Shown here one piece after another: positions 9,710 through 32,729 of a stretch of 64,000 nt of DNA (the first letter of the stretch is position 1; the number at the start of each line of letters is the position of its first letter). The notes beneath the pieces are model-generated. The model was not told the origin of the DNA. It saw only the letters and a program-made list of their open reading frames with translations, and did no database searches. The stretch comes from a candidate division WOR-3 bacterium (GTDB lineage Bacteria; Hydrothermota; Hydrothermia; LBFQ01), in assembly GCA_039802605.1 (NCBI GenBank), contig JBDRWW010000005.1, positions 36,902-100,901 on the forward strand. The letters are read 5' to 3'. The translations under genes were made by a program, and so were the position numbers.

Positions 9710-9794
9710 GCCGGGGTGGCGGAATTGGCAGACGCGCTGGGTTCAGGACCCAGTGGGTTTTATACCCGTGCGGGTTCAAGTCCCGCCCCCGGCA
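9710..9794 (+). tRNA. tRNA-Leu(CAG), CCA not encoded
   Basis: GCCGGGG acceptor stem, CTGGG-TTCAGGA-CCCAG anticodon arm, long variable arm, GGTTCAAGTCC T arm; TAAAAT box at 9690. Confidence 0.96.
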
Positions 9795-9795
9795 T

Positions 9796-10278
9796 TTGAG
9801 GGAAATATATGGAGGGTTGGAAACGCCTTTCTATGTTTACGACAGGGAAAAGATAGAGGAAAAGTGTAACAAGCTTTTAAACGGTTTTCCGTTTGCAAAA
9901 ATCCTTTATTCCGTAAAGGCAAATTCAAATCCCGAAATATTAAAAGTTATTAAAGGGTGTGGGCTTGATTTTGAGGTGGTATACCTAGTTGCAGATGCGA
10001 GGTTTATAATAAAGAGAGATTATCCTTACATCATAAGACCCGCTTTATACGGTGTAAAACATTCCATAAGGGCGTTAAAATCTTCTGTAGGTCCCGTTTT
10101 TGGGGTTTATGAATTGCCAATTATGAGGAAGGAGGATATGGTTGTTATTGAGGAGGCCGGGGCTTATGGTTATAGTATGGCCAGCAATTACAACGGTCGC
10201 CCAAAACCCGCCGAATATATGTTGGAAAACGGCGGGTTAAGGATTATCAGGCCGAGGCAGGATTATAGGGTTTTATAA
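9796..10278 (+). pseudogene. Internally deleted diaminopimelate/ornithine decarboxylase (LysA-like) remnant, still one open frame
   Basis: TPFYVYD, YSVKANS (PLP lysine), IRPALYG, AGAYGYSMASNYNGRP present in only 160 aa; most of the barrel and the CESGD motif are missing. Confidence 0.75.
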
Positions 10279-10294
10279 AAAAGGAGGTAGAGGA

Positions 10295-10723
10295 TTGGAA
10301 AAGTTGGAGCACTCCACCTTGGGGGAGCACTATATAGTGGAAGCCTCGGGTTGCAACCCCGAGGTTATAGGGGATATACAAAAGGTTCAAAAGATTTTGG
10401 TTGAGGCGGCGCAAAGGGCAAGGGTCACCATATGGAATATTTCCTTTCACAGGTTTCCTCCCAATGGGGTGAGCGGTGTTATAGTAATTGCGGAATCACA
10501 CATATCAATACACACATGGCCCGAGGTGGGGTACGCCGCCATAGACATATATACCTGCGGTGATAACGCCTTACCAGAAGAAGCGGTAAATTATGCCATA
10601 AAGGAGTTTGGCGCAACGCACGTACATATAACGGAAATTACCCGCGGTATAGACGATGGGGATAGGATTTTCTACCATACAATAGCCACCTGGGAGGAGG
10701 CGACAAAAGAGAAGTTCTTATAA
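10295..10723 (+). CDS. speD: S-adenosylmethionine decarboxylase proenzyme
   Basis: GVSGVIVIAESHISIHTWPE, DIYTCG; SD AAGGAGGT before TTG. Confidence 0.93.
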   Translation: MEKLEHSTLGEHYIVEASGCNPEVIGDIQKVQKILVEAAQRARVTIWNISFHRFPPNGVSGVIVIAESHISIHTWPEVGYAAIDIYTCGDNALPEEAVNYAIKEFGATHVHITEITRGIDDGDRIFYHTIATWEEATKEKFL

Positions 10724-31197: not shown

Positions 31198-31609
31198 AAA
31201 TCATGGGTGCTGGTAAAACGGAGAATTTGCCCTCCTGGGCGAGTAGATATATGGGCAGATTTATACCCCCTTTTAAAAACTTCAACCTATATCCACCCCT
31301 TAAAAATATCGCCGTATAACTCTGATCGTATATGTTTAACCTCGGTATCCCCGCAGTTGTACCGGAAAACCCAAAAGCCAATTCCCATTTGCCGATGTTC
31401 CCACCAAAACCCAAGGAAGAGTTGAGGAGGACAATGTTTTCTTCTCCAATACTATACCTTATACCACCGACTTCAAAAATCCCAAAGGTTGCTTCTCCAA
31501 AGGGGGCATTAACGCCGAAGGCGGGATAACCGAAAAAAATGGGTAATTCTTTATTTACCAAGCCCGGAAATGTGGCAAAGAGATTAATATTAAAAGCCAA
31601 ACTTAGCAT
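31172..31609 (-). CDS. Hypothetical protein, beta-strand rich (small outer-membrane barrel?)
   Basis: ATG 31609 overlaps the upstream gene end; Gly/aromatic alternating strands. Confidence 0.55.
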   Translation of the reverse strand: MLSLAFNINLFATFPGLVNKELPIFFGYPAFGVNAPFGEATFGIFEVGGIRYSIGEENIVLLNSSLGFGGNIGKWELAFGFSGTTAGIPRLNIYDQSYTAIFLRGGYRLKFLKGGINLPIYLLAQEGKFSVLPAPMIYVSLSTQR

Positions 31610-32654
31610 ATTCAAACTCCATTCCCAAGTAAAAAGACCTATGCGAGTTGTTGTAAGCAAATGTAAAGCTCCTGCGGAATAGGTTAAGGGATATTCCCCC
31701 AAATAAGGCTTTATCCACCGGATACAGGTATCCTATAAATACCTCGGGTCTAAACCTCTTTGCGAATCTATACCTAATAACGGGCTCAAAACCCAATAAT
31801 TGCCCTCCCCCGCTTAGAAACCACCTAAAACCTATACCCATCTCCCCACCTTCAAAAAATCCCGTATATCCCAACCTGTTTTCAAATATCAGGCCATTTT
31901 TCAAGTTTTCCGAGTTAAAGACATAACCCAAAAAAGAATAAAAGTCCAAATTATACCTACCCCTGACAAAAACCTTACCCACTTCACCCTCCACCCTCAC
32001 GGGGATTATGGTGGTTGATAGGAAGGATATCTGCCTAAACCTTATGTTGTATCCGTTAAAGGTTTTGTAAAACCCCGACCAAAGGGGAACACCGGAATTG
32101 TTATAAACAAATCCCGAAAAGTACCCGTATCCATCACCCCTTGAAACAAACTCCAAACCTCCACTTGAAAGGTATATCCACTCTTCATAAAAGTCCAAAA
32201 CCATAGTGTCATAAGGATACCTACCTATGTACGCGCTCCTACGGAAAGTTGTAAAGAAACCGCTAATTGTGAATTCCTTCAAAAGCGAAGAATAGGATGA
32301 AAAGGAGATCTTCCCAAAGGATACATCATAATCACCAACCTTGTCCGTGTAACTTCCCCAAAAACTTCCTTCAAATTGAAGGTAAGATTTTCCAATTTTG
32401 CCTCCCACACTCATAAATACCGGTTTTGCATAAAATGGCCTTGTAAGATAAGCGCTATCGCTTAAATATTCGGAATTCTGTGAGGATACCGAATAGGGGT
32501 ATGTATATGCAAAAACATATTCCCTTAGAATTGATGATGAACCCAAGGAACTGTGATAGTTGGCTATGTCTTCAAGCGTTTTATAAGAATTTGGCAAAGA
32601 AAAGGTTAAACCTCCGGATAAAATTGCGTGTAATAAGGGCAGAGTATCTATCAA
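31590..32654 (-). CDS. Hypothetical outer-membrane beta-barrel-like protein
   Basis: 354 aa rich in Y/F/G strands; TTG start 1 nt after tRNA-Met. Confidence 0.6.
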   Translation of the reverse strand: MIDTLPLLHAILSGGLTFSLPNSYKTLEDIANYHSSLGSSSILREYVFAYTYPYSVSSQNSEYLSDSAYLTRPFYAKPVFMSVGGKIGKSYLQFEGSFWGSYTDKVGDYDVSFGKISFSSYSSLLKEFTISGFFTTFRRSAYIGRYPYDTMVLDFYEEWIYLSSGGLEFVSRGDGYGYFSGFVYNNSGVPLWSGFYKTFNGYNIRFRQISFLSTTIIPVRVEGEVGKVFVRGRYNLDFYSFLGYVFNSENLKNGLIFENRLGYTGFFEGGEMGIGFRWFLSGGGQLLGFEPVIRYRFAKRFRPEVFIGYLYPVDKALFGGISLNLFRRSFTFAYNNSHRSFYLGMEFEYAKFGF

Positions 32655-32655
32655 G

Positions 32656-32729
32656 TGGCGGCGCGGGGACTTGAACCCCGGACCTAGGGTTTATGAAACC
32701 CTCGCTCTAACCACCTGAGCTACGCCGCC
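32656..32729 (-). tRNA. tRNA-Met(CAT), elongator type, CCA not encoded
   Basis: GGCGGCG acceptor with G1-C72, AGGGT-TTCATAA-ACCCT anticodon arm, GGTTCAAGTCC; Ile2 identity not excluded; TAAAAT box at 32742-32747. Confidence 0.93.

Follow-up and report, generated by a model that had tools for sequence, protein, structure and literature searches.

Start codons directly behind tRNA genes in a hot-spring bacterium near Candidatus Caldipriscus: evidence for a candidate tRNA punctuation system

The transcripts of animal mitochondria are reportedly punctuated by their tRNAs, as Ojala, Montoya and Attardi are said to have described in 1981, and Pellegrini et al. are said to have found in 2012 that uracils downstream of the discriminator activate RNase Z. 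In Escherichia coli, thrU-tyrU-glyT-thrT-tufB is an operon of tRNA and protein genes. RNase Z cuts directly after the discriminator in co-transcribed CCA-less precursors of Bacillus and Streptococcus (PMC8549757), Propionibacterium acnes has no obvious tRNase Z and yet processes CCA-less tRNAs (PMC3848588), RNase Z frees snoRNAs from co-transcripts with tRNAs in plants as well as in Thermococcus and Nanoarchaeum (PMC4247193), and leaderless mRNAs occur in D. deserti (PMC4007540) and mycobacteria (PMC4633059). Here we describe a candidate punctuation system in a hot-spring bacterium near Candidatus Caldipriscus, based on a 64,000-nucleotide (nt) window of its genome (C5:36902-100901; contig JBDRWW010000005.1 of assembly GCA_039802605.1) in which each of three tRNA genes is followed 1 or 2 nt later by the TTG start of a protein gene. 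The genome comprises 1.65 Mb in 23 contigs with 41% G+C and is rated 90% complete. Its nearest named relatives are Candidatus Caldipriscus (70-72% identity over a 60-residue query), another relative reaching 90%, and NCBI places Caldipriscus in Candidatus Caldipriscota, alias WOR-3.

tRNAs were detected with ARAGORN and with Infernal against Rfam, the genome-wide count (46 tRNAs) being that of ARAGORN, and the register of every tRNA was set by demanding seven acceptor pairs and U8. An adjacent start was defined as an ATG or TTG lying 0-12 nt past the discriminator and opening an open reading frame (ORF) of at least 55 amino acids (aa). Such a start follows 35 of the 46 tRNAs (76%), and 30 of the 46 have it within 6 nt; the gap is 0 nt at one junction, 1 nt at 12, 2 nt at four, 3 nt at nine, 4 nt at two, 5 nt and 6 nt at one each, and 8-12 nt at five. 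The start codon is TTG at 23 of the 35 junctions and ATG at the other 12, with no GTG (0/35). The same test was passed by 12.4% of 200,000 random positions (binomial p = 7e-23 for 35/46), by 5 of 46 positions on the divergent strand leaving the tRNA 5′ end, and by 397 of 1563 positions after the stops of long ORFs (25%). The abutment of tRNAs and genes far exceeds chance throughout the genome, and more strongly so than the three cases in an earlier note on this window had suggested. The genes at the junctions include murA, asd, prs, purB, rpmB, rpmG and nuoH, which have essential, well-expressed functions. Among the 11 tRNAs without an adjacent start, four precede the next tRNA in an Ile-Pro-Pro-Pro-Val cluster, six have nothing close, and one, tRNA-Gln(CTG), is followed by AAGGAGG and then, 18-19 nt downstream, by the ATG of a 405-aa ORF (MAKEKF...), which is probably EF-Tu-like.

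This arrangement resembles mitochondrial punctuation in that at most a few nt separate tRNA genes from protein genes; in mitochondria, tRNA excision creates an mRNA end with no leader and no Shine-Dalgarno (SD) sequence, CCA being added later, and the same is proposed here. It differs in belonging to a free-living bacterium whose 46 tRNA genes are dispersed and have their own promoters, whereas mitochondria make one or two genome-length transcripts, in that the message would be punctuated at its 5′ end alone and UUG dominates as start codon, and in that no homologue of the mitochondrial 3′ enzyme, RNase Z/ELAC2, was detected; RNase P RNA is present. As in the leaderless mRNAs of Deinococcus, Actinobacteria and archaea, a -10 box stands 6-9 nt before the start of hundreds of genes that lack an SD, and initiation presumably depends on the 5′ end; in those organisms, however, the 5′ end is a primary triphosphate start at AUG or GUG, whereas approximately 35 operons here would acquire theirs by RNA processing, two-thirds of them (23/35) at UUG. 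Bacillus and Streptococcus share the CCA-less tRNAs, the U-rich trailer right after the discriminator and the CCA-adding enzyme, but their trailer is not a start codon, and no rnz was detected here or in 18 relatives. In the E. coli tRNA-tufB operon, tRNA and protein genes have one promoter, as is proposed here; this classical form, also found here at tRNA-Gln(CTG), keeps a leader with an SD, and the junctions have neither. In the tRNA-snoRNA co-transcripts, tRNA 3′ processing frees a functional downstream RNA, as is proposed here, but the product in those isolated cases is a small non-coding RNA and not a translatable message.

The sequence just behind the discriminator is nearly invariant. 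Across all 46 tRNAs, the first trailer base is always a pyrimidine (46/46), the second is T in 45 and the third in 42, and this Y-T-T trailer is the same whether a gene, a tRNA or nothing comes next. None of the 46 tRNAs encodes CCA, which extends to the whole genome what had been claimed for the three in the window. TTG occurs within the first 7 trailer nt at 23 of the 35 tRNAs with an adjacent gene and at none of the 11 without one, which argues that Y-T-T belongs to the tRNA and the G or the ATG to the gene. The start codon often overlaps the trailer motif, as in Y-UUG, and the over-use of UUG at the junctions probably stems from the need to fit a U-rich trailer and a start codon into the same few bases. 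An SD-like tetramer (GGAG, GAGG or AGGA) 4-10 nt before the start was found at 0 of 35 junctions, no TAnnnT box lies in the 16 nt ahead of the junction starts, a stretch that consists of the T-stem and acceptor strand, and a scan of the window junctions found no terminator-like hairpin on the gene strand between tRNA and start. The earlier statement that no terminator, promoter or SD has room there is consistent with these results, the sole -10-like box lying upstream of the tRNA. Two terminator-like matches near tRNA-Leu, one in its anticodon arm and one inside an ORF, were read as spurious. A TA[TA][AT][AT]T hexamer ends 5-14 nt before position 1 of 41 of the 46 tRNAs; those lacking it are the four in-cluster tRNAs and one near a contig end. 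A scan for the E. coli-type two-hexamer promoter returned 0 promoters on the tRNA strands of the window because promoters in this genome have no TTGACA-like -35, so the promoter evidence consists of the -10 motif counts.

Starts with next to no leader are widespread elsewhere in the genome, in line with the short leaders that the earlier note had read from promoters in the window. In a comparison set of 1565 non-overlapping ORFs of at least 100 aa, covering 96% of the genome, -10-like hexamers peak with their first base at -15 to -12 from the start (102, 134, 68 and 72 hits; 376 in total) against approximately 10-20 at each other position, and SD-like tetramers peak at -13 to -10. A set of 343 ORFs carries a -10 box 6-9 nt ahead of the start; of these, 77% open with ATG, 10% with GTG and 13% with TTG, and T occupies position -1 in 228. 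Sigma-70-type promoters start transcription approximately 7 nt after the -10 hexamer; given such a start, the messages of these 343 ORFs would begin U(U)AUG, essentially the same end as the YUU-AUG or Y-UUG that a cut after the discriminator would leave. TTG is enriched at the junctions (23/35 versus 45/343 promoter-near ORFs, whose starts are uncurated; odds ratio 12.7, Fisher p = 4e-11). The promoters themselves carry a C 6 nt upstream of the TAtAAT hexamer in 89% of the 343 ORFs, no TTGACA-like -35, an A-rich stretch further up and a C-rich 'ACCCrcTT' stretch reaching down to the start codon. A TATAAT box precedes RNase P RNA by 8 nt, which leaves it almost no leader; no start codon abuts this RNA, the following gene being equipped with a TATAAT box of its own and with a leaderless GTG that lies 45 nt past the RNA.

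Whether the junction codons are the true starts bears directly on these counts, and all 35 junction proteins were scanned, 10 against NCBIfam and 25 against Pfam. In 17 of them the first 10 profile positions align to the first 10 residues, with profile and residue positions of 1 and 1 for L28, L33 and MurA, 2 and 1 for Asd and PdxT, 3 and 1 for Prs, 3 and 2 for AhcY, 5 and 4 for PurB, 4 and 2 for QueD, 8 and 10 for NuoH, 4 and 1 for the epimerase, 5 and 1 for patatin, 6 and 2 for HMA, 6 and 3 for Rrf2, 7 and 1 for GFO, 6 and 7 for NUDIX, and 10 and 8 for 2-Hacid_dh. All 17 informative family alignments place the N-terminus at the junction codon, and none of the 35 scans suggested a start further upstream. 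Six proteins leave room for doubt, their first domain beginning at residues 16-29 (NuoA paralogue, decarboxylase, DegT, AMP-binding, CcmE) or at residue 37 (DUF4321). For the window genes, relatives supply further support. The TTG after tRNA-Asn is kept in five of five genus genomes with a trailer of 1 or 2 nt, and three of the five have TTA at codon 11, where the sole in-frame alternative TTG lies here, which bears out the earlier claim of a full-length nuoA N-terminus at TTG 16782. Orthologues of the decarboxylase behind tRNA-Leu (in G003 of the same genus and in the sister family) carry 10-12 residues ahead of the TPxY motif, as TTG 9796 gives, and the G003 protein begins MRD... as compared with MRE... 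here, which favors TTG 9796 over the TTG at codon 8. True starts further downstream, a possibility that the earlier note had raised against itself, were found in none of the 17 informative profiles. Collectively, these comparisons argue that the junction codons are the true N-termini.

The junctions are shared with close relatives and fade with distance, as judged from tRNAs sampled with RF00005 in genomes that are kin and not independent observations. The same junctions recur in the four other genomes of the genus (G001-G004), and adjacent starts follow 16 of 30 evaluable tRNAs (53%) in the sister genus (G012 and G018; of 33 distinct tRNAs sampled, two were set aside for insufficient downstream sequence and one because a tRNA comes next) and, in the sister family (G005 and G006), 14 of the 41 tRNAs that do not precede another tRNA (34%), a count that leaves out one rpmG junction below the 55-aa threshold. 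Several other genes of the sister family have a new TATAAT box 10-20 nt from the tRNA and a leaderless ATG. Random level is reached in a genome of the same class (G024, 2/16) and one of the same phylum (G042, 3/13), and the Y-T-T trailer is lost in both. ARAGORN calls a tRNA with anticodon TTA ('tRNA-Stop') at locus L250 of G024, which may be a suppressor-like tRNA or a false call. The junctions of murA, nuoA, the barrel protein, rpmB, ahcY and the decarboxylase are kept in other genomes while the trailer drifts between 0 and 4 nt; tRNA-Lys stands directly before murA in only the three closest of nine scanned loci, with trailers of 0 or 3 nt. The junction between the CAT-anticodon tRNA and a 354-aa protein is kept in 12 of 12 family genomes: those of the genus have TTG after a 1-nt gap, and among those of the sister genus five have GTG after 4 nt and two have TTG after 2 nt (codons read from the sequences, two of them confirmed by script). 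Two genes occur in both modes. The decarboxylase junction is identical in G002, and the G003 orthologue is promoter-driven with a leaderless ATG; tRNA-Trp abuts rpmG (TTT-ATG) here and in the sister genus, and rpmG of G024 has AAGGAGG and a 16-nt spacer.

In the mechanism that we propose, most tRNA genes would serve as the 5′ module of a protein-coding operon, the tRNA and the operon being transcribed as one RNA from the strong -10-type promoter found 8-16 nt upstream of the tRNA. RNase P would trim the short 5′ leader of the tRNA, an endonuclease would cut at the discriminator or within a nucleotide of it, and a CCA-adding enzyme would complete the tRNA. The downstream product would be an mRNA with a 5′ monophosphate and a leader of 0-3 nt, and its translation would begin in the leaderless manner used for several hundred promoter-driven genes. 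The architecture is observed, and we put the probability that cleavage at the tRNA 3′ end generates near-leaderless messages at roughly 0.65. Cleavage is favored because no other promoter, SD or terminator lies at the junctions, because the trailer motif is universal, because ends made by processing would be like those that promoters make and that are already translated in this organism, and because the same gene occurs in either mode in relatives (decarboxylase, rpmG).

The inventory of processing enzymes fits the two flanks of this mechanism more readily than its central cut. RNase P RNA is present (212 bits), as are two PolyA_pol/CCA-family nucleotidyltransferases of 385 and 456 aa, both below equivalog cutoffs. 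Split CC-adding and A-adding enzymes are known from Aquifex, and the two proteins may be such a pair. Of the two genes that the earlier note had wished to see, cca is accordingly represented by these family members and rnz by no match. Four MBL-fold proteins were found, namely a beta-CASP RNase, a UPF0173-type hydrolase, a GloB-like protein and a YtnP-like lactonase. The beta-CASP RNase most resembles Cas14-type and archaeal aCPSF1 models, below their cutoffs. It is intact in the present genome, in G002 and in five of seven sister-genus genomes, and is split over two contigs in G014; G004 has pieces of it interrupted by stop codons, and no copy was found in G001 (57% complete), G003 (90% complete) or the sister family. 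RNase Y is present, and nothing ties it to the proposed cleavage site. Given that all tRNAs lack CCA, this is an unusual RNase set for a bacterium, with RNase Y and RNase P RNA present and no RNase Z, RNase E/G or RNase J detected.

Several points weigh against cleavage. RNase Z, the typical cutter of such precursors in the earlier note, gave no match to TIGR02651 at E ≤ 0.001 in the genome, the best being E 0.003 on the beta-CASP protein, and exceeded the curated cutoff in 0 of 19 genomes of the order, where the best score (47 bits) fell on the N-terminal half of a 241-aa protein; the same search matched 14 of 14 control genomes. Partial RNase Z-like matches, up to 126 bits, occur in 37 of 61 genomes sampled from the phylum, and in 0 of 8 genomes of two neighboring families of the class. 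The putative cutting enzyme is therefore not RNase Z as known. The beta-CASP RNase was rejected as a general cutter, being missing or broken in G003, G004 and the sister family, all of which have junctions, and RNase E/G and RNase J were not found in the genome, although gene absences are provisional in an assembly rated 90% complete. Four metatranscriptome runs, represented by a 3% sample and mapped to window positions 9500-17500 at 90% likeness, yielded no read or contig that spans a junction or has its end there. From the two raw-read runs came 22 and 9 reads with partial matches on tRNA bodies (90-95% likeness), evidently from other organisms, and no pile-up of read starts or ends was reported. 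UUG is a poor leaderless start codon in model organisms, and the 343 promoter-near starts used for comparison are the most upstream codons of their ORFs. As an observation in its own right, seven short contigs of run X1, a 2023 sediment metatranscriptome, match window positions 10302-16557 with 0-1 differences; they correspond to speD, the family-2 glycosyltransferase, the C25 protein and nuoA, and none reaches a junction. The present organism or a near-identical strain would appear to be represented in this RNA library, with DNA carry-over possible.

Since a clean endonucleolytic cut is left without a known agent when RNase Z, RNase E/G and RNase J all go undetected, the tRNA might instead stay attached during translation as a cap-like 5′ structure, ribosomes starting internally at the first codon after it; the tRNA would then mature by 3′-to-5′ decay of the message stopping at the acceptor stem, or each transcript would yield either a tRNA or a message. 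RNase P and exonucleases would indeed suffice inside the Ile-Pro-Pro-Pro-Val cluster. However, the 30S E site and exit channel hold approximately 12 nt of single strand, and translation of an uncut precursor is disfavored because a folded, GC-rich tRNA 0-3 nt before the P-site codon would occupy this space and could not fit the ribosome. No SD or other internal signal stands at any of the 35 junctions, and the organism clearly has a start mode that depends on a 5′ end. Exonucleolytic maturation would moreover tie the supply of 35 of 46 tRNAs to message decay, and the invariant Y-U-U would be left unexplained, so that we regard an attached tRNA as unlikely.

A further alternative holds that the adjacency is a by-product of extreme compaction, with weak read-through expression and a TTG that is simply a T-run plus G with no selected role. 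Coding density is indeed 0.96 by long ORFs, T-runs also stand behind tRNAs without a following gene, and 25% of long-ORF stops have a start within 12 nt, but the figure at tRNAs is three times that, and TTG is missing from the first 7 nt of all 11 gene-less trailers. Weak expression sits poorly with the essential, well-expressed genes at the junctions, as does the lack of a selected role with a start codon and a closeness that are conserved over two genera while trailer length drifts. Equally small genomes of the same class and phylum are at chance (2/16 and 3/13), and compaction as the whole explanation strikes us as quite improbable. Finally, the starts could be mis-called, the open frame merely reaching the tRNA while the real start lies downstream with its own signals. 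ORF lists always take the most upstream start, six proteins have a late first domain, and 12 of the 35 have no Pfam or NCBIfam match informative on the N-terminus, which also counts against cleavage. Such an error would nevertheless have to coexist with 17 of 17 informative alignments beginning within the first 10 residues, with a sole nuoA alternative that is not conserved and with decarboxylase orthologues that match the length given by TTG 9796, and we give it hardly any credence.

Within the window, Infernal found no Rfam family other than the three tRNAs (Table 1). Here the earlier note was accurate in its positions, both sequence and ORF list having the TTG 1-2 nt after each tRNA exactly where it had been described, and equally in its -10 boxes for each tRNA and in the polycistrons behind them, whose genes are packed as operons. 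Its "LysA-like" gene at 9796 is indeed of the decarboxylase family but is an internally deleted remnant (160 versus 374 aa): Pfam Orn_Arg_deC_N matches only profile positions 2-46 of 247, and alignment with the intact G002 orthologue, which has the same junction, shows approximately 214 central residues to be missing. The N-terminal 62 and C-terminal approximately 85 residues are kept, with 92% identity to G002 in the shared parts, and the remnant reflects either in-frame gene decay or assembly collapse. In the operon behind tRNA-Asn, neighboring gene ends abut or overlap. Its NuoA copy is 31% identical to a second homologue in the window. No other nuo gene comes after this copy; the genes behind it are a lipoprotein-like ORF, a membrane ORF and the Peptidase_C25 protein. 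The CAT-anticodon tRNA has seven acceptor pairs and is therefore not the initiator, which sits on contig C14.

Table 1. Features of the window and of the processing machinery (plain numbers are window positions; G000 is the present genome, with contig numbers)
Feature	Position	Strand	Description
tRNA-Leu -10 box TAAAAT	9690-9695	+	14 nt before tRNA position 1
tRNA-Leu(CAG)	9710-9794	+	CCA not encoded; discriminator A9794; ARAGORN, Infernal
Trailer T (1 nt) and TTG 9796-9798	9795-9798	+	T-T-T fills the Y-T-T motif; codon overlaps trailer motif
Decarboxylase remnant, 160 aa	9796-10278	+	pyridoxal phosphate-dependent Orn/DAP/Arg type; opens at junction TTG
speD (AdoMet_dc)	10295-10723	+	downstream of decarboxylase remnant in tRNA-Leu unit
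Family-2 glycosyltransferase	10765-11367	+	after speD in tRNA-Leu unit
tRNA-Asn -10 box TATAAT	16870-16875	-	12 nt before tRNA position 1
tRNA-Asn(GTT)	16785-16857	-	CCA not encoded; discriminator G16785; ARAGORN, Infernal
Trailer CA (C16784, A16783) and TTG 16782-16780	16780-16784	-	from the sequence
NuoA paralogue (Oxidored_q4), 123 aa	16411-16782	-	first gene behind tRNA-Asn
Operon behind tRNA-Asn	11364-16782	-	NuoA paralogue, 79-aa ORF, 241-aa ORF, Peptidase_C25 protein, 224-aa membrane protein
Peptidase_C25 protein, 1137 aa	12035-15448	-	Por secretion tail; tRNA-Asn operon
Second NuoA homologue	~22217-22630	-	
tRNA-Met -10 box TAAAAT	32742-32747	-	12 nt before tRNA position 1
tRNA-Met (anticodon CAT)	32656-32729	-	CCA not encoded; discriminator A32656; ARAGORN, Infernal
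Trailer C (C32655) and TTG 32654-32652	32652-32655	-	from the sequence
354-aa protein	31590-32654	-	no Pfam family; opens at junction TTG
Unit behind tRNA-Met	29461-32654	-	354-aa protein, further ORFs, then uvrC (29461-31197)
RNase P RNA	G000:C11:7865-8270	+	
CCA-family protein, 385 aa	G000:C2:23817-24974	+	
CCA-family protein, 456 aa	G000:C1:44181-45551	-	HD domain
beta-CASP ribonuclease, 434 aa	G000:C8:20125-21429	-	MBL, Beta-Casp and RMMBL domains

In the literature searched (PMC4681348, PMC12542636 and PMC11696919 included), no report describes a bacterium whose tRNA genes routinely abut start codons or leaderless gene expression in this bacterial group, and the word 'leaderless' has 0 occurrences in the Caldipriscus/WOR-3 papers searched. 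For the Caldipriscus family as a whole, we tentatively suggest a broader scenario, which we hold to be possible but somewhat less probable than not: a punctuation system may have evolved independently of mitochondria, in which an endonuclease other than RNase Z would read the tRNA together with Y-U-U, a single cut would make both the tRNA 3′ end and a 5′-monophosphate message with a 0-3-nt leader, efficiently translated even at UUG, and the absence of RNases E/G and J, which sense 5′ monophosphates, would be part of the adaptation. If cleavage at the junctions is real, this would be the first bacterial lineage to use tRNA excision routinely for making translatable mRNA ends, and tRNA supply, operon transcription and translation initiation would be linked for housekeeping genes, among them murA, asd, prs, purB, rpmB, rpmG and nuoH. 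The lineage would then serve as a natural system for studying leaderless initiation at UUG and at monophosphate ends left by processing, and the junctions would point to a tRNA 3′ endonuclease other than RNase Z in a hyperthermophile clade that branches deeply. Annotation of WOR-3/Caldipriscota genomes is affected as well, since gene-calling programs built around a leader or an SD will misplace the junction starts.

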